Assembly (NCBI GenBank): GCA_964016885.1
Contig: OZ024741.1
Span: forward strand, 287,432,001 to 287,496,000
Length of the DNA: 64,000 nt
Source: Eledone cirrhosa
Taxonomy: Eukaryota
Direction of reading: 5' to 3'
How positions within the stretch are numbered: position 1 is the stretch's first letter; every line of letters begins with the position of its first letter. A program made the translations under genes and the position numbers. The notes under the pieces were generated by a model. The model saw only the letters and a program-made list of their open reading frames with translations. It was not told the DNA's origin and made no database searches. This document shows positions 18,798 through 53,710 of the stretch, one piece after another.

Positions 18798-19120
18798 CAG
18801 AAAAAAAAAACGAGGAAGTTTCGTTTACATATAAAAAGGATTTATTGTTTATCGGCCTGTTACGCGTGATGTGACAAATTTTTTTTTTTGCCACATGACC
18901 AGTCTGACAAGCATATCGATACTGGAGTTGGGTCCATAAATACGATTGGTTAACTTGAGCCAATCGTCTGCGAGACGCACGTAACAGGCCATACACAATA
19001 AATATTTTTTATATGTAAACGAAACTTCCTCGTTTTTTTTTTCTTCTATTATATATACTCTGCCTGCTCATAGAGTGCTTGATTTGGTACCAACACCAGT
19101 AATTCACTGTACTATCCACT
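18797..19120. mobile_element. Fold-back element with decayed HHR-like motif (18897-18990)
   Basis: Arms about 18800-18868 and 18978-19043; spacer CTGACAA GCA..TGC GAGAC GCACGT A; GAGTGC at 19073, then (TA)n. Confidence 0.65.
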
Positions 19121-19133
19121 ATATATATATATA

Positions 19134-19445
19134 TATGAATGTATGTATAGTATATTTGGCAATATACCGTATGTTTAATTAACAACATTTTGAAGACCTT
19201 GCGCTATCATTTTAAAGTAGTGACTATGTCACTTACTTCTTTTTTCGGCAAAGGAAGGGAGAGAAGCTGACAGATTCTGTTTCACGCTGTTGGTGATCCT
19301 TTGCCGAAAAAAGATGTAAGTGACATAGTCACTACTTTAATATGATAGCGCAAGGTCTTCAAAATGTTTTAATTAAACATACGGTATATTGCCAAATATA
19401 CTATACATACATTCATGTATACATCGCTATTTCAGAGCACCAATC

Positions 19446-19450
<5 letters not shown>
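19134..19450. repeat. Fold-back element (about 120-bp arms) between (TA)n tracts
   Basis: 19134-19255 is the reverse complement of about 19297-19417. Confidence 0.9.
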
Positions 19451-20157: not shown

Positions 20158-22574
20158 TAGAGTTCGCTGACCATTCTCGATGTTCTTTCAGTGGAAGTGG
20201 GAGGAATTTCAGCAAAATTGTTGGTGAGCTGTTTACTGTTAGATTTAGCTGGCCATTCTCGTTGTCTGTCAGTGGAGGTGGGGTGGTTGTCTACAAGGGC
20301 TGTATTTGTAATATCACTCAATTCCGTTAGATGTATCAATTTACATCTAATGATACGTTTTGCCTGTTCATTTAAATGCTTTGGAGAAAAGTCTAATTCT
20401 GGGTGTTTGGAGTTCCATAAAGTTTTTAGCCTTTGCATAAAACCGAACTTTTGGGGTTCAGATTGTTTGTATGCTTCATATAATTCCAATAGCCTGCCAA
20501 AACATCATGTATTAATTATATACTGGGTGCCTTAACCTGTTCTTACAGGATCACTGTGCTACCAACAACATCATAACACCTGAGCAAGCTGGTGAAAAGA
20601 GGGAGGTGTGGGGTTGCATGGATCACCTACTAACTAATAAAATGATTCAAGAAAAAATAACAAAGAATCGCAGAAACATGACTGTGGTGTGGCTGGACTA
20701 GCAAAAAGCATTTGATAGTGTACCTCATAGGTGGATTGTTAAGGCTTTACAGTTAACCAAAGTCCCACAACCACTGGTAGCTGCTGTTGAACGTCTGATC
20801 AAGAACTGGTACACCAATTTGATCCTTAGAGGTGAGAAGGAGCAAGTTAAGACTGATAAGATACATTACCAGAAGGGCATCTCTCAGGGTGATAGCTTGT
20901 CAGTGCTACTCTTCGTTCTCTCACTAAATCCACTATCTTACCTACTCAGGAAACAAGGTGGACAAAGAAGTGCGTCCAGAAGTATCTCCCATCTTTTCTT
21001 TGTTGATGACCTAGAGTTGTATGGGCCAAATATCAATAACATCAAGAAACAATTGGACCTCATTACACAATTTTCGACAGACATCAAAATGAAATTTGGT
21101 GAGTCCAAGTGTGCATATTTGGCAGTAAATCTAGAGATGAACGACCTGACAATACAACCTCTACAGTCAGGTGACAACTACAGATATCTTGGACAGGATG
21201 AGAATGTCAGATATGATGGACCCATAAATAAGGAGAGAGTTGAATACCTCAGAAGAGAAAAGAAAATATGGTCATCAGAACTGTCAGCGTACAACAAATA
21301 TATTGCCCACAATACTTATGCTGTGCCAATTCTAACGCCAATAATTGGCCTGCTGAACTGGTCATTGCAAGAACTAAGTGAGATGGATGTTAGAACTCAC
21401 AAACCTCTCAGTGTTACTGGAAACTTTAACATCAATGGTGATGTGGATAGGCTATTCTTCTCACCCAGGGAAGGTGGTCGGGGTCTAAAATCCATATTAA
21501 CATCATATGAGACCCGGATAGTAACACTGAAGCAACATCTTCAACAGAGGAAAAAGGTTGGCAACCATCTTGCCCAGGTTTATGAGCATGAAAAATAAAA
21601 TATCATTAGAATAGCGACTGATCTGGAGGAGAGATATGGAATAAAGCCTGATATAAATCTCTCACACAGAGAAATCGGAAGATCCTATTCAATGTTCAAA
21701 CAAGATGAAAAAATTGACCAATTTACAGAAAAAGTTGTGCATGGATACTTGAGACGTAAAACACAGACCATAGAGGGGATAAACCACTCAAAAACCTGGC
21801 ATGGAGTTCCGACAAGTTTATGACATCACACCTTGAGGGATATCTCTATGCAATACAGGAACAAGATCTCCCTACCAAATATATTCTGCACAAAAGGGGA
21901 GGGCCATCAGCTGAGAATAAATGTAGGCTATGTGAAACAAAAATCGAGGATGTAAGCCACATTGTTGCCAGCTGCGAAAGAATGTCATCTCGCTACTACC
22001 TCCCATGAGACACGATGGGATAGCTAGAACCATCTGCAACGCACTTTGGAAAACAAAATTAACAACAAACGAGGAAGAATATATTGAGACAGATGACACT
22101 AAGGAATACTGGTGGAACCTGAAAATAAAAACTGCCACCAAATTAAAGCACAACCGGCCTGATATTGTTGTTTGGGACCACACATTGAAAACGTGTTCTG
22201 TTGTGGAGATCAGCTGCCCACTTGGTGTAAACGTTGTCAGAAAAATACAGGAGAAGGAGGACATCTACGGACCATTGATGAGGAGTTTACAAATCCAGTA
22301 TCCAAGATACACCTTTAGCTTCATACCCATCATTATTGGAGCTACGGGTTATATACCAACCCGCTTGGACCAAAGTATGACTGAACTTGGATTTGCGGAC
22401 AAAGAGCACAGCTCCCTAATTCATAGTCTACAAATGGCTGCGATAGCTGGCACCTTCAACATTTGCAAAACATTCTTGTGATTCAAGGGATGACAATTTC
22501 TTTTTTTTTACAACCTTACCACCAAGAAGGTGGCCGGTCAAAAAAATATACTGGAAATTAAGAGAAAGAGATAA
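20158..22574 (+). mobile_element. R4/Dong-type non-LTR retrotransposon (RT + CCHC + restriction-like endonuclease), disrupted, in (TACA)n
   Basis: KAFDSVPH, GISQGDSLS, FVDD, CRLC..H...C, RHD, RPDIVV, VVEISCP; stops and frameshifts; 20158-20510 is an N-terminal piece in opposite orientation. Confidence 0.9.
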
Positions 22575-25158: not shown

Positions 25159-25230
<72 letters not shown>

Positions 25231-25363
25231 GTGAGGTTTTTTTTTACAAAATGAAAAATAACTGAGGTGTCCTACACGAGTGAAAGTATAAAGAAAAAGA
25301 GATGAAATCGAAAATGCAACTGAAGTCTTATTTTTTTTTAAAAATATATATATTTATTTGGTT

Positions 25364-25401
25364 CCTTTACCGGTTTCGCAGTTCTTCTGCTTTTCAAAAG
25401 G
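25364..25401 (-). ncRNA. Type I HHR, U3-A8 core variant, in PLE pseudo-LTR
   Basis: Minus strand: CCTT TTGAAAA GCAG AAGAA CTGC GAA ACCGGT A AAGG. Confidence 0.85.
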
Positions 25402-25462
25402 TGAGTTGAGATGGAGGGTCTGTGGTTTTTCTCTCATCTGGTTGGTCTCTGAATGTTACTTG

Positions 25463-25708
25463 TTTTATATGGAAAAAGTGGCTCGAAATTCCAGGTTTTT
25501 CGAGAAGTAATTTGATTGGTTTGTCAATAATTATAATAAATTTCGCGCCAGTTCGCGTTACAATAGTTCTTCAAATAAGAGAGGGGGGATTTGTCACAGG
25601 TTGTTTTTTTCATATATATGAGTGTTTGAATTTCTTTTTACTTGAAAAAAGGAGGCTCACGAAGGCTTTTTTGGGGTTGGTTATGAATGAAATTTGGCTG
25701 TCACGTGA
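25463..25708 (-). promoter_or_regulatory. Putative pseudo-LTR Pol II promoter (E-box, E2F-like, CCAAT, TATA)
   Basis: TCACGTGA 25701-25708, TTTCGCGC 25541-25548, CCAAT 25515-25519 (minus), TATAAAA 25463-25469 (minus); the same motif types are retained in diverged copy 51140-51330. Confidence 0.5.
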
Positions 25709-25912
25709 ACAAGTTTTTATTACATTTTTGCGCCCTTATTTGGAAAACTATTCTGTAGTCTTTATAGTGAATGTTATGACAATGGAGAGATAGTGGTCAA
25801 GAGAAAAGGGATTGGGAGAAATGTTCTGGTTCAGTGAATATGGCCAGCTCGCCGGGGTGTTTCTATTGAGACTGAAGATATGTATGTTTATTTGTGTGCT
25901 TGTGTGTGTGTA

Positions 25913-25990
<78 letters not shown>

Positions 25991-26473
25991 TATTGGAAGA
26001 TGATTCTATTAGTAGAGATGGGGGAGGGAGTTGTGTGTGTGTGTGTATATGGGTGTTATGTGTGTGTGTGCGAGTATGTTAAGATGGAGAGAATATATAT
26101 TTTGTGTGTGTGTATATATATATGTGTGTAGGAAAGTGGTTCTATTAGTAGAAATGGGGAGGGAGTTGTAGGTGTGGGGGTTGTTATGTGTGTGTATGGG
26201 TGTTATGTGTGTGGGAGTATGGTTAGCATGTTAAGATGAAGAGAATATATATATATATATATTGTGTGTATGTGTATGTGTGTGTGTAGGAAAGTGATTC
26301 CTTTAGTAGGAATATTTTTGAATGAACATATTTTCCTTACTTTTTCGTGTTTGCTGTTGTATTGCCAGTGCAAACGTATGTTAAGGTTTATTTAGTTCGG
26401 GTTTTTATTTTCTAAAGTAGAAGGTGTTATGTGTGTGTGTGTATGTCATATTGTGGTGTTGACATAATGTATA

Positions 26474-28742
26474 TTAAACCTTATTTAATGTTGGTCTATA
26501 TTTTTGAATAAACATATTTTCCTTATTTATTCGCATTTGTTCTGTTGTATTGTTAGCGCAAAGGTAAAATGGGAAGACTTGGAATTTGGGTGTCTTATTA
26601 CTTGCGCAAATGTCTAGATGTGCACTTAGTGGTATCTGTCTCGTGGTTGGATCTCGTAATTGTTGGCGATGAACTGTCATTCTGTTTCTGAGTGTGAGTT
26701 TAGTTTGTCCTATATAATCTTCCTTGCATCCTTTACATTTAATGGCATAAATTAGATTTTTTGATGAGCAAGTGAAGTGATTTTTTACAGTAAAATTTTG
26801 TCCTGATTTAAATGTATACGTGTTGCCTTCAATGAGGTGAGTGCAGGTTCCACAATTAGAGCGACCACATTTTTTTATACTTGGTTGTGGGTTTGTGGTA
26901 GGTAATTTGGCATTGGTGAGTAATGTTTTCAGTGATTTTGGTTGTCTTTTGCTTTTGATTATTTTGTGTGTTTCAAGGGCTTTTTTCATTCTTGGGTTTT
27001 GTTTTAGTAGTGGGATGTTATTGTGAATAGTGTTGTAAGCTTCCGCATTTCTTGGGTTGTGTGTTGAGATATATGATAGAATATTGGACGTACCTTGAAT
27101 TTGTTTCTGTTTCCGTAATTCATCAATGCCTATTGCTTTAGCCCTTTCTATTCCATTATTTATTAGTAATAATGGGTACTCTCTCTCAAGTAGAATTTCC
27201 TTTAATTCTTGAAGTCTTTTATTTCGCGTTTCATAATTGGAGACAATTGTGCAAATTCTTCTTGCTAGGTTAAAAGGAATGTTCGTCTTCGTGTGCTTTG
27301 GATGGTTGGAGGTGAATAGCAGATATTGTTTGGAATCTGTTGGTTTGTAGTGTATGTCAGTTTCGATATTTGTGTCTTTTTTTGTGATTAAGATGTCCAG
27401 AAATGGGAGTTGATCTTGGCTGTATTCCATTGTGAATTGGATGTGGTTACTGATGCCGTTTATTAAGTTTTTGAAATCCTTCAGTTGGTCGAGTGTGTGG
27501 GACCAAAGAATGAGGCAATCGTCCAAGTAGCGTTTCCAATTCTCTGATAAATATTTGTGGAAGTTCAATCCGTATTTTGATTTGGACTGTTCATATATCT
27601 GGACTTCTAAGTATGCCATGACTAAGTTGGCATAAGTTGGAGCGGCTTTTGTGCCCATCGCAGTCCCCGATATTTGCTTGTAAGTATTGCCATCGAAATC
27701 AAAAAAGTTGTTCTGTAGGATGAATTTTAATCCCTCGGTGATGAAGCTTTTTTCTATTCTGTCAGGTATCTCATTGGGATATTTCTCTAGCCAGAATCCT
27801 ATTGCTTCTAGTCCGTATTGGTGTGGGATCGTTGTGTAGAGATTCACTACATCGAAAGACACAATAATAGTGTCGTTGTTGACATGTTTTGGGAGGTGGT
27901 TTAAGAGGTCCAGATCGTCTCTTACAAGGCTTGGTATGTTTCAGTATTGGTTTCAGTAGTATGTCTATAAAGTTGCTCAATCTGTGTGTTTCACATTGTG
28001 GGCCCGCTACAATTGGTCTTAATTTAAGGTCTGTGGGGTATTGTGTGTTCACGCAGGCTGAGGTGGATTGTTTACAGGCATCGTTGATTATTTTACATTT
28101 GTGGATCTTCGGAAGTCCGTAAAGGTTGCTGGTTTTGTATTCAAAATTTGTTAAATAATCGCGTTCCTTTTTAGTTAGGTCTTCCTGGTATCGATAAATC
28201 AGTGTGTTTAATTTGGTCATTATTTTTGATTGCTGGTAGTTTTTTACTCTTTCATAGTAATTAGTATTTTGTAAGAGAGAGAACATAGAATTTTTATATT
28301 TTTCAGCCTCCATAATGACAACAGTACTTCCCTTGTCCGCTTCCTTAATTACAATGTCCGTATTGTTTTTTAGTTCATGGATAATCTCCCATTCCCTTCG
28401 ACTTGTGTTGGGTTTGGGTTTAGGTTGCGGTAGTTCATGGTATGGGAAGGTAGCTATGTGATCACAAAATTTGTCCAGAACTCTGTTTCTACCTTTTGTT
28501 GGGTTGTAGCTGCTTTTATTCCGTACAATTGATTCGTCGTTATTCTCCTTGTCAAAGAATTCCTCTGTGAGACGTAATTTTCTACAGAAGTGTGAGATAT
28601 CGTCATTTATCTCGTTGGGGTTAAGGTATTGTGGTGTTGGTGTGAATTTCAGACCTTTGGAGAGAATTTTTACTTGTTGGGCTGAGAGGTTTGTATTTGA
28701 AATGTTAATTATTTTCGGTTTTTCAAAATCGGTTTGTGCCAC
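26474..28742 (-). pseudogene. PLE polyprotein: reverse transcriptase + GIY-YIG endonuclease, single frameshift near 27930
   Basis: IINIS..LSKGLKFTPTP, YGLPKIHK, LRPIVAG, SFDVVNLY, GTAMGT, RYLDD, LPFLD, CGRSNCGTC, LIYAIKCKGC..YIGQT..R...H. Confidence 0.93.
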
Positions 28743-28844
28743 CGGGTGTCGTGAGTCCTGTAGCCTTGGTCTAAAAAATGATTTTTCTGGAATGTTTTTT
28801 CATTGGTATTATTATATCTAATGGTATTTCCCCTATATATATTT

Positions 28845-29927
28845 CTAGGGCGGGTAAAATACCCGAGATCCATGGACGAGTTCTCTCCAGCGGTGTCTGT
28901 CCCTCATTATCGCTGCCATGTCCTGCCACTCCAACAGACCAGTGTCTGTCCTTAGGGCATCAACATACGTTAACCTTTGTCTTCCTCTTCCAGTGTGTCC
29001 ATGTAGGGGCTCCCACAGGAGCACTGAGTGCAATGTCAACTCTGGATGCCGGTGAGCATGTCCAGCTAACCTCAGTCTCCTCTGTGTCACTTTTGAGCTG
29101 ACTTTTGGGAGGCTCCCATACAGTTCTGAGTTTTTCATCCTCAGTGTATACTGATTAATGTTCAGAGCCATCCTCAGCATTCTTGTGTAGCACCCATCTA
29201 CCCTCTGAGTGAGTTTCTTGGTCAGTGTCCAAGTCTCAGACCCGTACAGCAGCACAGACTCCACTACAGCATTACTTTAGGAAGGTCTTTGATTCTGTGG
29301 ACCGTCACTGCCTGATGAAGATCTTATAGGCTTATGGAATCCCCAAGAAGATAGTGGACCTGATATCACTGCTCTACACCAACACCGAAGCCCAAGTCAT
29401 TACACCTGATGGTATGACAGAGTTCTTTGAGATACTGGCTGGAGTGCTCCAGGGAAATACATTAGCTCCCTACCTTTTTATCATCGTAGTGGACTATTGT
29501 ATGCGCCTTGCACTGGAGCAACACCGGGACTCTGGCTTTACTGTAGCGCCGGCTCAGAGCAGGAGAGTTAAGGCGAAAAAGGTATCAGATGCTGAATTTG
29601 CCGACCACATAGTTTTGGTGACAAATACAGTGAAGGAGGCAGAGGATTTGATGCAGGATGTTGAGACTATGTCGATGAGTGTGGGGCTGAGAATGAATGA
29701 GACTAAAACAAAATATCTGGTAGAGAATGTTGAGAAGCCAGAGGGGATCACTAATGTAGGCGGGACGCCGCTAGAATTGGTTGAGGACTTCCTGTATTTG
29801 GGAGAAAAGTTTGGGAATACGGAAGATGATGTGGTTGAGAGGAAGAGCAAAGCCTGGGCGGCGTACCACAGCTTGAGTTCGGTGTGGAAGTCAGAGCTTC
29901 GTAAAGACCTGAAAATCCGACTCTTCA
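28845..29927 (-). mobile_element. RTE LINE with inverted 5' segment
   Basis: 28845-29270 (minus) encodes VESVLLYGSETW..RLAGH..GRGR; 29272-29927 (plus) encodes KVFDSV..GVLQG..FADH..KDLKIRLF, the immediately preceding part. Confidence 0.9.
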
Positions 29928-29942
29928 TATATATATATATAT

Positions 29943-30235
29943 GTGGTTCAGTGATTAGTGTGTTTAGTGCGTTCAGCTCTGTATCGTAAGGTCGAAAGTT
30001 CAATTACCGGCGCCGCGTTGTATTCTTGAGCAAGACAATTTATTTCATGTTACTCCAGTCAAGAATGAGTTGTAGCTATAATCCAAATGCCTCTCACTGT
30101 CGCACTGAACCTCCATGAGAATTATGTTAATGCTACACGTGTCTGTGAAATTGTCAGCCACCTACATATTAATTTCATGAGCAATCTGTTCCGTTGATAG
30201 ACAACTGCAATACTCATCGTCGACATCGACAGAAC
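29943..30235 (+). mobile_element. Diverged tRNA-derived SINE (third family)
   Basis: GTGGTTCAGTGATTAG A-box, AGTTCAATTACC B-box-like; related copies at about 200-440 (+) and 59770-60020 (-). Confidence 0.6.
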
Positions 30236-31257: not shown

Positions 31258-31296
<39 letters not shown>

Positions 31297-31297
31297 T

Positions 31298-31535
31298 AAT
31301 AGGAAAAGAGTCAGGACTCCAACGGTGACTTAGTTCTGATCTAGGTGTCGAAACGCATGGTGCTCAACCGACGGAGTCCTGACTCTTTTCCTATTACCCA
31401 GTGGACCATACGCACCAGAATACTCAATATTTAGGGTAGTAAAGTGGGTAATAGGAAAAGAATCAGGACCCTGTCGGTTGAGCACCAGGTGTTTCGACAG
31501 CTAGATCAGAACTAAGTCACCGTCGGGCTCCTGTC
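31298..31535. mobile_element. Two tail-to-tail family D variants
   Basis: 31298-31400 (+) and 31401-31535 (-); stem II variant GACGGT..GCTGTC GAAAC. Confidence 0.7.
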
Positions 31536-31770: not shown

Positions 31771-32043
31771 TACAAATATTAATAAAATAGATGTTCTTTT
31801 GATCAATTAAATTTTATTATACATATTTCAGAGGTACAACAGTTCGTCCTCATTTGTCTGATGAGGACGTACTGTTGTAGCTCTGAAATATGTATAATAA
31901 AATTTAATTGATCAAAAGAACATCTATTTTATTAATATTTGTATTTTAATATTAATAACTCTTGAAAATTATTTTTTTGTAGAGTGCTTCCAATCTACTG
32001 TAAAACTCATTCTTTGATGTACTCATTGAATCTTGTTTAACTC

Positions 32044-32164: not shown

Positions 32165-32260
32165 ATATTGTTATACTTTGGGAGGGTCATGTTGCCAATA
32201 AGAAACACACGCGCGTGTGTTTCTTATTGGCAACATGACCCTCCCAAAGTATAACAATAT
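32165..32260. repeat. Perfect 96-bp spacerless palindrome
   Basis: Centre CACACGC|GCGTGTG at 32212/32213; arms match exactly by eye. Confidence 0.95.
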
Positions 32261-33278: not shown

Positions 33279-33406
<128 letters not shown>

Positions 33407-33409
33407 ATA

Positions 33410-33530
33410 TTAGAAAGTGAGGTTTTTTTACAAAATGAAAAATAACCGGGGTGTCCTACACGAGTGAAAGTATAAAGAAAAAAAGATGAAATCGAAAATG
33501 CAACTGGAGTCTTATTTTTAAAAGAATATA
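33410..33530 (-). mobile_element. Solo 3' end of the PLE pseudo-LTR
   Basis: Matches 25224-25348; abuts (TA)n; followed by a 42-bp perfect palindrome 33533-33574. Confidence 0.9.
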
Positions 33531-33629
33531 CTATAGTATAGAGTATCTGTTCTAGAACAGATACTCTATACTATTTCCTGTCAGCATGGCTTGGCAAGAT
33601 ATTTAGAACGCTGGTTTGAGACCTTTATT

Positions 33630-35210: not shown

Positions 35211-35464
35211 TATGTATATATATATATATATATATATAAGAACAAAAGATGGTTAAAAGAGTTCCATGTATTTTATTATGCGCATTTCAATACTTATCTG
35301 ATATCTGCATTGCTTTATTGTACTACAATAAAACTCACCTCCTACATTATATATATATATATATATATATATAACGGTATTAAATAAATGGAAACTATAT
35401 TTATAAAACCATATTTATTTGAAAGGTATGTCGAATCTATCTATTTATAAGACTGTTTATATTG

Positions 35465-35530
35465 TATTTTGTCTGAAGAAGGCATAACATATTTTTAATA
35501 TGATATCCCTGAAATATATATAATGAAATA
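35465..35530 (+). ncRNA. Type I HHR inside a fold-back element (about 35375-35660)
   Basis: TATTTTGT CTGAAGA AGG..CCT GAA ATATATAT A ATGAAATA; GAGTGC at 35594. Confidence 0.8.
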
Positions 35531-35656
35531 ATATGGTTTTATAAATATAGTTTCCATTTATTTAATATCGTAAATATACTCCAAATACTTGTTGAGTGCT
35601 TTTATATCAGTTATAAATATTTACTCGTTGTTAACCCAACAATTTAAATAAAACTT

Positions 35657-35710
<54 letters not shown>

Positions 35711-42001: not shown

Positions 42002-42184
42002 CGAAGGAAATGTGGTAAGGAACCAGGTGGACCATAACGCACCAAAGTACTCAATACTTGAGGTAGTAGAGTGGGTAATAGGAACCAGTAAGACCCCGAC
42101 AGCTGAGCTCAAGCCGTTTCGACGGCTAATTCTGGAATTAGCCGTCGAAACGGCTTGAGCTCAGCTGTCGGGGTCTTACTGGTT

Positions 42185-42777: not shown

Positions 42778-42816
<39 letters not shown>

Positions 42817-42822
<6 letters not shown>

Positions 42823-43174
42823 AAAAAGGGATGAAATCGAAAATGCAACAGGAGTCTTATTTTTTTTTTAAATATATATATTTATTTGGTTCCTTTACCG
42901 GTTTCGCAGTTCTTCTGCTTTTCAAAAGGTGAGTTGAGATGAAGGGTCTGTGGTTTTTCTCAGATGTGAGAAAAACCACAGACCCTCCATCTCAACTCAC
43001 CTTTTGAAAAGCAGAAGAACTGCGAAACCGGTAAAGGAACCAAATAAATATATATATTTTTTAAAAAAATAAGACTTCAGTTGCATTTTCGATTTCATCC
43101 CTTTTTCTTTATACCTTCACTCGTGTAGGACACCTCGGTTATTTTTCATTTTGTAAAAAAAACCTCACTTTCTA

Positions 43175-43176
<2 letters not shown>
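42817..43176. mobile_element. Fold-back non-autonomous derivative of the PLE pseudo-LTR with two HHRs (42892-42929 minus, 43000-43037 plus)
   Basis: Near-identical to 25224-25433; centre TTTCTCA GATG TGAGAAA; (TA)n on both sides. Confidence 0.92.
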
Positions 43177-43211
<35 letters not shown>

Positions 43212-44699: not shown

Positions 44700-44892
44700 G
44701 TTTTAATATAGATGAGATTCTACAGGACTAGAACTGTTTCATTCTTTAGAAATCATCAGGAATTCTGATGATTTCTAAAGAATGAAACAGTTCTAGTCCT
44801 GTAGAATCTCATCTATATTAAAACTTTTATACTCTGCAATGTATTGAGTACCTTACTTACTGTGGTTACCTCCGATTCAACCCGGAATAACG
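44700..44892. mobile_element. Family B fold-back element with head-to-head HHRs (44716-44764 minus; 44761-44808 plus)
   Basis: Near-perfect 60-bp arms; ATTC CTGATGA T TTC TAAA GAA T GAAACAG TTCTAGTC CTGTA GAAT; GAGTAC 44846. Confidence 0.88.
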
Positions 44893-46652: not shown

Positions 46653-47016
46653 TGTGTATTTTTGAAAATAGCATATATTTTCACTACCTCTTGTAGTTTG
46701 GCAGGTGAACAGTGAGCTGTACTGATGAAGGATGATATCCTGAAACATTAGTGTCTGCAGTTCTGTTCGCATGCCAACATAAGAGCAAGAATGAAGTGTT
46801 AATTCTACTGACATGGCTATAAAATTGAGGCTTGTTTGCATAATTGAAAACGAATCGAATGTTTTTATTAACATTCGAAAAATTCAGATTACATATATAG
46901 GAAAATGTTTAACCCCGACGGCAGAGCTCATTTTCCTATTACCCACTCTACTACCCTAAGTATTGAGTACTCTGGTGCGTTATGGTCCATCTGGTTGCTT
47001 ACCACACCTCCTTCGT

Positions 47017-51129: not shown

Positions 51130-51544
51130 CAAACCTACATCTGGCGCGAAACCAGTTCGCGCTAAAATCAATTTAAACATTCACGTGACTTCTACCGACC
51201 AATCAAAATTGTTTTGACTACAAGAATTTTTTGCAACACGAATTGGCGCGAAATTTATAGTGCTTATTCACGTGACATTCAACAACCAACCAAATTGTAA
51301 TACCTTCTAAGCCACTTTTTTCACATAAAACAGGAACAATTTCCAAAACTTATCAGATTAGAGCAAAAATCACGAGCACTCTATCTCAAAATTATTTTTG
51401 AAAAGCATAAGAAATGCGCAACCGGTAAAAACTTAAAACTAAAACTGAATACTAACTAATACTTATTACTAATTTATACTTATTCCTAATTAAACTATTT
51501 TTCACTGGGAAAAATTTGTCAGCATTTTCTTTTCCTTTTTATTA

Positions 51545-51545
<1 letters not shown>
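51130..51545 (+). mobile_element. Diverged solo PLE pseudo-LTR with decayed U3-A8 HHR (51395-51430)
   Basis: Patchy similarity to reverse complement of 25350-25710; TTT TTGAAAA GCAT AAGAA ATGC GCA ACCGGT A AAA. Confidence 0.75.
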
Positions 51546-51633
<88 letters not shown>

Positions 51634-51643
51634 AGTGTGTGTG

Positions 51644-53710
51644 GTGAGGGCGAAGGTCGTCATTGACCGGACGAGGGAGAAGAAGGCGCTGCATTTGGCG
51701 TCGAAGGGAGAACGCGTCCGGGTCTTCAACGAGGCGCAACTGCAGGAAGCCATCATGCAGGAAAACTGGCGTCAGGGGGACGGCATAGACGCTGACTGCG
51801 ACTCACTGATAAGGAAACTGAAGGAGTGCTTGAGGAAGGCTAAGGTGTGTGCCCGAGGGAGCAGAAGAGAAGAGTCTCGGAGGAAACTATGTAGTTGCTT
51901 AAGAAGAGGGAGAATATGAAGATGACACCTGAAGATCACCTCGAATATTCCCTTCTCAGCAAAGTGATACGTCAACAACTGAAAAGAGACTTCGAGGCAT
52001 ACCGGATGGAGAAGCTCCTGACGGCCGCAAAGGAAAAGAAAAGCCTCAAGAAATGCGAGAGGGACATGACAATGTACAGATCGGAGGTGACGACCATGAA
52101 AAACACAGCTGGAGTACCGGTCAGCGACAAGAGTGAGGTGGAAAAGGTTTGCGAAGACTTCTACACGAAGCTCTTCAAGTCTGCCGGAATGTGCAGCTGT
52201 TGCCATCACTCCAACAGGAAGAAAATGAGCTACCCATCCTTGTCGGTGAGGTCGAAAGAGCCGTCGGCTTGATGAAAAGCGGAAAGGCACCAGGGAAAGA
52301 CGGCATAACATTGGAGGTGTTGAAGTCAGGCGGAGAGCAGCTCTGGAAAATCCTCGCCGAGTGATTCACACACTATCTGGACGAGGGAAGAATACCCTCA
52401 CAGTGGAAAGAGTCGAATACCATCCTGCTACACAAGAAGGGCGATAGAGAAAATCTGAAGAACTACCGACCCATATGCCTGCTGTCTCGCGTGTACAAAC
52501 TGTTCACGAAGATAATCCTGAACAGGTTATCACGTCATCTGGACGAACAGCAACCGAGATAGCAAGCCGGTTTCTGGAAAAACTACAGCACGATGGATCA
52601 CATATTTACTCTGACACAACTGCTTGAGCGAGCAAAAGAGTACAAGATGCCTCTTTGCGTCACGTTCGTAAACTACGAGAAGGCCTTCGACAGCGTCGAA
52701 ATCAACGCAGTGCTGAACTCGCTGCAGAGGCAAGGAGTCGAGGCGCAATACGTTCAACTGCTCAGGGAAGCGAGTTCCGGATGCACCACCGACATAGCTC
52801 TGCTGTCATCACCCGTACGAGTGCCCGTCGAGAAGGGAGTGAAGCAAGGAGATACGATCTCTCCAAAACCTTTCACCGCGTGTCTCGAGCAGATCATCAG
52901 AGGCATTGACTGGCAAGGCGGTGTCAACATCAACGGCGAGATACTTACCCACCTCCCTTTCGCTGATGACATCGTACTCATCGCTGAAACCACGGATCAG
53001 CTTCAGACAATGCTGACGGAGCTCGACATTAAAAGCCCTGCAGTAGACCTCAAGATGAACCGCATGAAAACGAAGTTCATGCGGTCCGACAACGTGCCAA
53101 CTGGTCGAATGGTGGTTGGCGGTGATGAAATAGAGGAGGTGGAGGAATATGTCTACCTAGAACAAGAAGTGAACATGCGCCGAGACATTGAGAGGGAGAT
53201 CTCGTGGAGAGTAAGGGCCGGATGTAAGGCGTTCAACGGCATAAGGGATGTGCTCAAGGGGAGGTTGGACAAGACCACCCGCGCCAACCTCTTCAATAGC
53301 ACAGTTTTAGCTTCAATGTTATATGGCAGTGAAACTTGGGCTACAGCGAAGAGAGAAGAGCAGAGGCTGGTAACGGCTCAAAGAGCCATGGAGAGATCAA
53401 TGCTAGGAATCTGACAGAAGTCCGGCGTGAGGGACGTCATCACGGAATATATGCGCAGCAAGTTCAGATGGGCTGGACACGTCGCCCGATTCACCGATAA
53501 TCGGTGGACCCGCGCAGTTGCCGAGTGGTACCAGCACGAGCGGAAACGACCACTCGGAAGGCCTCCACGAGGGTGGAGTTACGATTTTAAGAATACGATT
53601 GGGAATACATGGATGAGGAAAGCACGATCCAGAGAGGAATGGACGGCGTGCTGTGACCAGCGGCGCTGAAATGACGCCCGACAGACTGGTCGGTGAAGGT
53701 GATCAAGGTG
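51644..53710 (+). mobile_element. RTE-clade LINE, 5'-truncated, several stops and frameshifts
   Basis: KAPGKDG, NYRPICLL, YEKAFDSV, GVKQGDTISPK, FADD, YGSETW, RWAGHVAR, RPLGRP; tail GGTGAAGGTGATCAAGGTGA. Confidence 0.93.

Follow-up and report, generated by a model that had tools for sequence, protein, structure and literature searches.

A hairpin-shaped, promoter-less insert made of two head-to-head copies of a hammerhead-bearing PLE end in Eledone cirrhosa, and twin priming as its candidate origin

How the end of a PLE comes to be present twice, head to head and without an ORF, is the question that is raised by the insert located at 42817-43176 of the window, i.e. of the whole stretch of 64,000 nucleotides of Eledone cirrhosa DNA that was analysed. 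The window is AT-rich, animal-type DNA, packed with (TA)n tracts, and its repeats have been searched for with masked BLAST, since (TA)n dominated the unmasked whole-window output. The insert comprises 355 bases and is hairpin-shaped, being composed of two head-to-head copies of a hammerhead-bearing PLE end, and both of its ends are located within (TA)n; the stretch 42817-43113 matches its own reverse complement with 95.3% identity over 297 nt, and its fold reaches -236 kcal/mol (z -32), a stability that is equalled by none of 100 shuffles.

The left (TA)20 target tract (42780-42819), whose last TATA also matches the internal TATA of the element at its second end site, is followed by the short, tail-less arm (42820-42962, minus strand), an inverted copy of PLE 25291-25433 that ends at TTTCTT^TATA, which we refer to as “site 2”. 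The junction CA-GATG-TG (42961-42968, plus strand) holds the 4-nt loop GATG at 42963-42966 and a CA/TG microhomology of 2 bp, and it coincides with the predicted start site of the PLE promoter, which carries an Inr-like CAGAT. The long, tail-bearing arm (42961-43174, plus strand) corresponds to PLE 25440-25225 and extends between the predicted +1 and the 3' terminus of the PLE, which we refer to as “site 1”; the 67 nt between site 2 and site 1 constitute the “tail” (43110-43176, plus strand), which occurs in the long arm only and carries the right arm past the mirror into the second (TA)n tract (43175-43208), a tract that is shared with a B-type copy facing the insert tail to tail. Aligned over its full extent, the long arm (42961-43179, plus strand) matches PLE 25440-25220 (minus strand) with 96.8% identity over 221 nt, both sharing the terminus CACTTTCTAA, followed by (TA)n, and the short arm matches PLE 25288-25433 with 95.9% identity; the sequence-only reading, which had described a long arm nearly identical to the PLE 3' end, with the same (TA)n terminus, and a short arm that is its inverted copy, is borne out by these alignments.

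The two arms differ from each other in 6 of 143 columns and from the PLE in 5 and 7 of 144 columns, alleles that do not discriminate. The differences between the arms bear on the explanation that a palindrome arose at the DNA level after insertion, that two opposite insertions were joined by a central deletion, or that the structure is an artefact of the assembly or of the reads. Nested insertions do gather in the (TA)n tracts of the window, and such tracts are fragile and hard to assemble, but next to these points we have to set the diverged arms, a mirror that stops at an element-specific site and flanks that are unmirrored, and we regard an origin of this kind as very improbable.

The partner element is located at 25220-28800. 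Its coding region (26474-28799, minus strand) is split over two frames (27771-28799 and 26474-27940), with a break near 27900, and comprises an RT, a CX4CXXC linker and a GIY-YIG endonuclease; in 26477-27940, the Pfam family GIY-YIG is found with an E-value of 6.5e-7, over its cut-off, and RVT_1 with an E-value of 1.9e-6 and 28.2 bits, slightly below the cut-off of 29.6. The protein has 349 homologues, with the best named relative in Octopus bimaculoides (76% identity over 66% of the query), and the linker cysteines C358, C363 and C366 are invariant in all 18 sequences compared. An RT followed by a C-terminal GIY-YIG domain, with CX2-5CXXC in the linker that joins RT to EN, is the organisation of an EN+ PLE, and the linker motif is described as a mark of the Neptune/Nematis clades (PMC8557442); by this motif, as opposed to a tree, the partner is a putative Neptune-type PLE. 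At about 28845, its 5' end adjoins another LINE fragment, with a short run of TA between the two, and broken LINE-like RT fragments are located at 28845-29989, 52563-53414 and 20702-22481.

The 3' end of this PLE, from the predicted start to (TA)n (25220-25440, minus strand, hammerhead core at 25397), represents the family from which the fold-back derives. Beside the ORF start of this PLE copy, a second, 5' copy of it is absent, i.e. the direct repeat of a pLTR is missing, and the name “pseudo-LTR” is therefore our inference from the promoter, the hammerhead and the position; what had been called the PLE's own pseudo-LTR is a bona fide PLE end by its RT and GIY-YIG ORF, the repeat itself being unseen.

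Elsewhere in the window, the PLE finds matches only at 42.8-43.2 kb, 33.4 kb and 51.2 kb. The second short copy (33406-33574, minus strand) retains the last 111 nt (94.6%) and is capped by a perfect 42-bp palindrome (33533-33574), with another turn position; a turn at its hammerhead cleavage site was considered and set aside as not significant (p=0.23). The sequence that is joined to this palindrome is unmatched elsewhere in the window, and short copies are capped on their 5' side by the perfect palindromes of 42 bp (33533) and 96 bp (32165-32260). The third match is a diverged, unfolded solo relative (51140-51546, plus strand; 69% over 212 nt), in which the promoter and the hammerhead are kept and whose 3' end aligns to site 2, with p=0.01 in a window chosen post hoc and p=0.23 in a wider one.

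The alleles at this locus speak neither for nor against an origin from two templates: the short arm and the 33.4-kb copy share the allele at PLE 25323, both arms share one at PLE 25300 that is absent from the PLE and from the 33.4-kb copy, and all four combinations occur. An element that is palindromic, non-autonomous (MITE- or SINE-like), of single origin and copied as a unit would account for a long inverted repeat with MITE-like (TA)n ends, and its read-through RNA would retain the tail. Such a unit is nevertheless hard to reconcile with a single copy in the window, with the missing promoter and with an inverted repeat that is not terminal, since the one-sided 67-nt overhang and the one copy with this junction in 64 kb are unlike a MITE or a palindromic DNA transposon; we give it only a slight chance.

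A descriptor scan has revealed 11 hammerhead-like motifs in the window, against none or one in each of 20 shuffles. The identical U3-A8 motif occurs at 43004(+), 42925(-) and 25397(-), with predicted cleavage after 43033, 42896 and 25368; the sequence-only reading had placed it in both arms, and the descriptor finds it there. In the short arm, the minimal type I hammerhead occupies 42892-42929 (minus strand, core from 42925), and in the long arm it occupies 43000-43037 (plus strand), with a helix I of 4 bp, a helix II of 4 bp and a palindromic helix III (ACCGGT). Rfam gives no match at gathering score and no hammerhead at E<=10 on 25200-25700, and the ribozyme call therefore rests on our own descriptor and on covariation: between the 51-kb relative and the PLE hammerhead, one compensatory change occurs in each of helices I and II (two lineages, with 26 of 500 shuffles as high), and the relative has GCAA in place of GAAA. 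Two copies cofold as the double-hammerhead form at -20.3 kcal/mol. The motif resembles the minimal hammerheads of PLEs that were described by Cervera and de la Pena (2014), with U3-A8, a short helix I, G10.1-C11.1 and a dimer-needing palindromic helix III, and differs from them in lacking the extra base after position 9, G10.1 directly following the core (PMC4209133); in the same source, the U3-A8 variant and a low activity are reported, and PLE hammerheads are mostly single motifs, with opposite-strand pairs 100-700 bp apart.

As the two hammerheads of the insert are on opposite strands, any one transcript holds a single sense copy, and read-through of the insert would bury the hammerheads in a 146-bp duplex; for these reasons, they are unlikely to work in cis. 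Two further observations concern local motifs. A single-copy C3-G8 hammerhead at 46714-46765(+), with helices I, II and III of 8, 5 and 4 bp, could fold as a monomer. The antisense of hammerhead helix I (42927-42934, plus strand, and the mirrored minus-strand site in the long arm) reads AG/GTGAGT, a perfect 5' splice site, which may be due to chance; PLEs carry introns near the pLTR.

The position of the turn is best approached from the PLE, where a predicted Pol II promoter (25463-25550, minus strand) that is absent from the insert comprises an E2F-like TGGCGCGAAA (25550), CCAAT (25519) and TATAAAA (25469). Counted from the first T of TATAAAA at 25469(-), the C of the CAGATG at which the long arm begins (25440) is at 29 nt and the following A at 30 nt, which is the usual spacing from TATA to initiator. 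The turn had been placed about 30 nt past the TATA motif, and the measurement agrees; the spacing is kept in the 69% relative at 51 kb, where the E2F-like word, a TATA-like word and CAGAT at 30 nt (29 in the PLE) are retained. The segment 51142-51330(+) conserves the E2F-like word, CCAAT and TATA together, with two E2F-like words and two CACGTG boxes in all, and such a word could couple PLE expression to the cell cycle.

Outside the window, 40 PLE-like loci were fetched, and in all four that were inspected a hammerhead follows the ORF; L010 has TATA at -38 and an Inr-like TCAGTC at -11, L003 has TCAGAT at -12, and L001 and L002 are less clear. L010 resembles a single complete tandem unit of 3.97 kb, in which TATA, Inr and hammerhead precede the ORF start. 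These 40 loci are animal-type PLE-like RT sequences within contigs of bacterial MAGs, most likely through host contamination; none of them holds a head-to-head pLTR fold-back, and their few self-inverted matches are short or of low complexity. Because the spacing from TATA to CAGAT is kept in the 51-kb relative and similar motifs occur in the outside PLEs, the long arm most likely ends at the 5' end of an RNA, as far as the motifs of one locus can indicate, and the template RNA was most likely left uncut by its own ribozyme, as for the anole PLE in vitro. A 5'-terminal RNA stem starts exactly at the predicted +1 (42962-42992, plus strand) and is kept at 51355-51386(+); a stall of the RT at this stem is unlikely, as the arms pass through the stem to its 5' side.

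A turn at such a 5' end would suit the mechanism that the sequence-only reading had implied, in which the TPRT cDNA, having reached the RNA 5' end, folds back via CA/TG, copies itself and joins the left (TA)n. At this locus alone, the loop that derives from the long arm, the 2-bp register and the TATA microhomology speak for it, as does the PLE 25300 allele that the arms share. Other features of the same locus speak against it: the short arm crosses a 10-nt perfect (TA) match at 43048-43057, to stop at a 4-nt match at 43110, and the cDNA end holds a stabler 8-bp hairpin, whose register was not the one used at the junction, although this last point counts against end-joining too. On these and on the comparative grounds that follow, we consider such a simple snap-back improbable.

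The comparison has been extended to the fold-back families B, C and D, labels that follow the mapping made in this analysis and may differ from earlier definitions. Masked self-BLAST of the window returns 19 fold-back matches, to which the family mapping adds further asymmetric cases; junctions and arm reach have been placed by split alignment and by reading of the alignments, as automatic loop calls fail at large asymmetry. Separately counted, the two-arm loci also number 19 (one of family A, 10 of B, five of C and three of D) and occupy 3618 bp, or 5.7% of the window; they are few, come from a single window and have been partly scored by eye. Left out of this count are a complex B locus (31312-31533), copies with a single arm, the two perfect palindromes (32165 and 33533) and the fold-backs without a reference at 7365, 10931, 18799 and 19138. 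The complex B locus (31295-31535 in wider limits) has tail-to-tail arms and two more short inversions, suggesting repeated template switching. The four long fold-backs without a reference extend over 7365-7822, 10931-11240, 18799-19119 and 19138-19448, three of them with a one-sided extension of 35-87 nt, and the descriptor finds no hammerhead in any of them. Family B may correspond to the octopus SINE “Twofold”.

All 19 loci have exactly one tailed and one tail-less arm, a regularity that speaks against an artefact or a rearrangement of the DNA. The tail-less arms end at fixed positions: in family B, seven of 10 stop exactly at TTCC^TAT and the others within about 7 nt; in family C, four of five stop in one column; in family D, all three, together with a single-arm D copy, stop within a few columns. 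The same ends are used by unfolded copies (D 31600 and, probably, 51546), which also speaks against a simple snap-back. The tails measure 67 nt in A, 79 in B, 66 in C and about 89 in D (65-90 nt overall), against 30-40 nt in print. Those of B (42002-42080), C (44825-44890), D (31952-32040) and 19045-19119 begin with TAT...ACTC, followed 12-22 nt later by GAGT, whereas of these features the A tail shows just the initial ACTC; this similarity among unrelated families was noted post hoc, and the paired motifs possibly represent a common protein-binding hairpin.

The junctions, by contrast with the arm ends, are variable. Three B copies that are 99-100% identical have three different junctions, and the C copies 44762 and 47100 also differ in theirs; the fold is thus made anew with each insertion, which tells against a palindromic unit of single origin. 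Accordingly, the name “mini-element”, if it is to mean a unit that spreads, does not suit an insert that has no promoter and belongs to a class in which near-identical copies turn at different places. The idea that the turn marks the RNA 5' end remains plausible at the A locus and does not hold generally: in B, the junctions are spread over about 55 nt, and each of them is located downstream of a hammerhead core that is retained by no B copy in the window; in D, the turn is located within helix I or far upstream, with unfolded D copies reaching 70-150 nt further upstream. In family C, all five tail-less arms stop 0-9 nt upstream of the core, which is compatible with a start site there. The proposed direct link from this locus to B, C and D is likewise not supported as stated: these families share only its anatomy, i.e. 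hammerhead parts, ends in (TA)n or other simple repeats and one tailed and one tail-less arm, but no sequence is shared between the PLE and B, C or D when they are compared in the window.

The 5' reach of the two arms discriminates further between the explanations. The tail-less arm is at least 5 nt ahead in 11 of the 19 loci, the tailed arm is far ahead in one, and seven are ties or differ within 7 nt; sign tests give p=0.006 (11 of 12), p=0.039 when three doubtful loci are removed (8 of 9) and p=0.12 when the three small leads of the tailed arm are included (11 of 15). Because a cDNA cannot template sequence beyond its own end, a simple snap-back of the tailed cDNA is impossible in those 11 loci and cannot be the general rule; the term “fold-back”, understood as a mechanism, fails for the same reason, the tail-less arm being often further 5' than the arm from which it would have been copied.

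The same bias is expected under the self-primed hairpin of Arkhipova et al. (2013), in which the 3' end of an antisense RNA, or of a free first strand with the tail, folds back and is copied into a long hairpin, which the endonuclease cuts in a staggered manner, at site 1 and site 2, in the course of integration. It has been published for head-to-head pLTRs with palindromic junctions (PMC3846280), and the tail has been ascribed to resolution by the endonuclease (PMC8557442); it predicts fixed ends, a loop that belongs to the tail-less arm, as in the 11 loci, and arms that share alleles, as in family B, where six of 10 loci show no differences between the arms, several of them over very short overlaps. 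The perfect 42-bp and 96-bp palindromes (33533 and 32165) also look self-primed. On the other side of the balance, the tailed arm reaches further at 35374-35660 (by more than 100 nt) and at 42817-43176 (by 4-6 nt), and an antisense template gives no cause for a turn at the sense start site. The locus at 1666-1798 is also left unexplained by it: the arms differ in 4 of 23 columns, the tailed arm having one difference in 89 to copy 36380 and the tail-less arm one in 23 to copy 39116, and these arms of two subfamilies imply two templates or a later conversion. We consider the self-primed hairpin unlikely on balance, though it accounts for most of the facts that our own account explains and is the least unlikely of the alternatives to it.

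In our view, the simplest account of the insert is twin priming, i.e. reverse transcription from two start sites followed by head-to-head joining of the cDNAs, to which we assign a probability of roughly 55%. The account proceeds from the observed anatomy, homology, fixed arm ends, variable junctions and arm-reach bias to a start site, an RNA and enzyme steps that we infer as follows. The Pol II promoter in the PLE 3' end would start a short RNA at about PLE 25439, in which the 5' stem, the minimal hammerhead, the tail and read-through sequence would follow in this order. The PLE protein, by analogy with the anole PLE, would bind the uncut RNA and nick both strands of a (TA)n tract, and each nick would prime reverse transcription, one from site 1 at the end of the tail and the other from site 2 at its start. 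At 42817-43176, both cDNAs would have reached the RNA 5' end, and their 3' ends would have been joined head to head via a microhomology of 1-2 nt and then filled in, giving (TA)n, tail-less inverted arm, junction, tailed arm and (TA)n; the insert is thus probably a promoter-less, dead-end copy of a short RNA that was begun inside the PLE end. The inserts of families B, C and D would have been made likewise, each from its own unseen PLE partner, with the junction wherever the two cDNAs stopped.

Several of these steps have counterparts in the Poseidon PLE of Anolis carolinensis, whose protein nicks and extends both strands, starts reverse transcription at two sites flanking the tail on an uncut RNA template and is predicted to dimerise (Frangieh et al. 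2024, PMC11167929). The AT-rich target is common to both systems, as the two tail-bounding starts, the uncut RNA and the extension of both strands would be; Poseidon belongs to another clade and has its tail in the ORF start, as opposed to the non-coding tail found here, and the available text of that study does not tie two-strand extension to inverted inserts (PMC11167929). Twin priming also has evidence against it. Frangieh et al. find the start site to be equal between the strands (PMC11167929); the tails, of 65-90 nt, exceed the 30-40 nt in print; none of the 40 outside PLE-like loci shows such a fold-back; at 42817-43176, the tailed arm is the one that is 4-6 nt further 5', which fits a snap-back equally; the arms share private alleles in most loci, and two templates are demonstrated at one locus only; and central deletions after insertion could mimic the arm-reach bias. 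A more elaborate version, in which a PLE insertion involves two RNAs and two RTs, with the hammerhead serving mainly as a module for RNA dimerisation that pairs two templates through its palindromic helix III and a dimeric protein priming both nicks at the tail-bounding sites, is offered as a speculation that we think is more probably wrong than right.

Twin priming was reportedly described for L1 by Ostertag and Kazazian in 2001, with primers from the two target strands giving a 5' inversion and a microhomology joint. L1 inversions reportedly come without duplication and with a second primer placed anywhere, unlike the present inserts, where the arms overlap and the second start is fixed.

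Much of the anatomy is already published: pLTRs that are inverted head to head, with or without a tail, solo pLTRs and pairs of hammerheads on opposite strands. In the account of Arkhipova et al. (2013), the 5' pLTR occurs in an inverted form, 37 bp shorter than the direct one with which it overlaps and optionally extended by a tail of 31 bp; solo pLTRs are reported as well, as are palindromes of 18 and 38 bp where pLTRs have their 5' ends (PMC3846280). Craig et al. (2021) extend the description to PLEs in general, with an inverted copy that is truncated at its 5' end and a tail, and regard the origin of these structures as open (PMC8557442). The insert, with its head-to-head inverted end copy and its short, microhomologous junction, has the form of such an inverted pLTR; it resembles those of Pen2a, Pen2 and Pen3a of Adineta vaga in the overlapping, shorter inverted arm, the palindromic junction and the tail on one arm, and the Adineta vaga PLEs also have, as here, pLTRs with TATA and Inr, solo pLTRs and AT-rich targets (PMC3846280). 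Unlike the Adineta vaga PLEs, as they are described in the available text, the insert has neither an ORF nor a direct pLTR pair but just two arms, excludes the promoter, turns at the predicted +1 and has a one-sided tail of 67 nt where 30-40 nt are described for PLE inverted pLTRs, and inserts of its kind are dense here (19 loci, 3618 bp, 5.7% of the window).

A likeness also exists to the animal non-LTR retrozymes, short non-coding hammerhead sequences that derive from PLE pLTRs and include dispersed monomers (bioRxiv 10.64898/2026.07.22.740005; see also PMC7229834). Retrozymes, as the available text presents them, are head-to-tail tandems with at least two same-strand hammerheads and a circular RNA, whereas our insert is head to head with one hammerhead per strand (43004(+) and 42925(-)) (bioRxiv 10.64898/2026.07.22.740005). 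Among the titles and abstract openings of the literature searched, which holds few subscription papers, we found neither twin priming for PLE inverted ends nor solo head-to-head pLTRs in octopus. A dense two-arm form that lacks ORF and promoter, a turn located at a predicted +1 and evidence from the arms for two primings were seen neither there nor in the cited text. Taken as a whole, the sequence-only reading was right about the origin of the insert and probably right about the start site at this locus; its link to B, C and D was overstated, and its mechanism was probably wrong.

The making of tandem and inverted PLE ends is a named open question (PMC8557442), and in the anole in vitro study the steps after RT initiation are unvalidated (PMC11167929). 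The structure as such will not surprise a PLE specialist; what it offers is a way of making that mechanistic question testable with one genome, as short, ORF-less head-to-head inserts assemble easily and would permit a genome-scale test of twin priming against the self-primed hairpin and the snap-back from arm ends, junction sides and arm alleles alone. Through the A-family locus, hairpin repeats that would otherwise be anonymous are tied to a real PLE, and a predicted start site is marked to the base. In octopus annotations, such repeats may be listed as SINE, MITE or unknown; one recent annotation counts 893 unclassified SINE families among recently active insertions, and the terms hammerhead, ribozyme and palindrom do not occur in its main text.

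The host group has unusually many perfect dsRNA-forming loci (PMC5625713). The inserts, if read through, would give duplex RNA of 50-150 bp, and a tie between them and this richness in dsRNA is put forward as a hypothesis. If the reading with two RNAs and two RTs is true, the hairpin repeats of octopods, of which thousands are expected, would record starts, stops, template pairs and transcription starts, and they would be a major source of long double-stranded RNA in the host.
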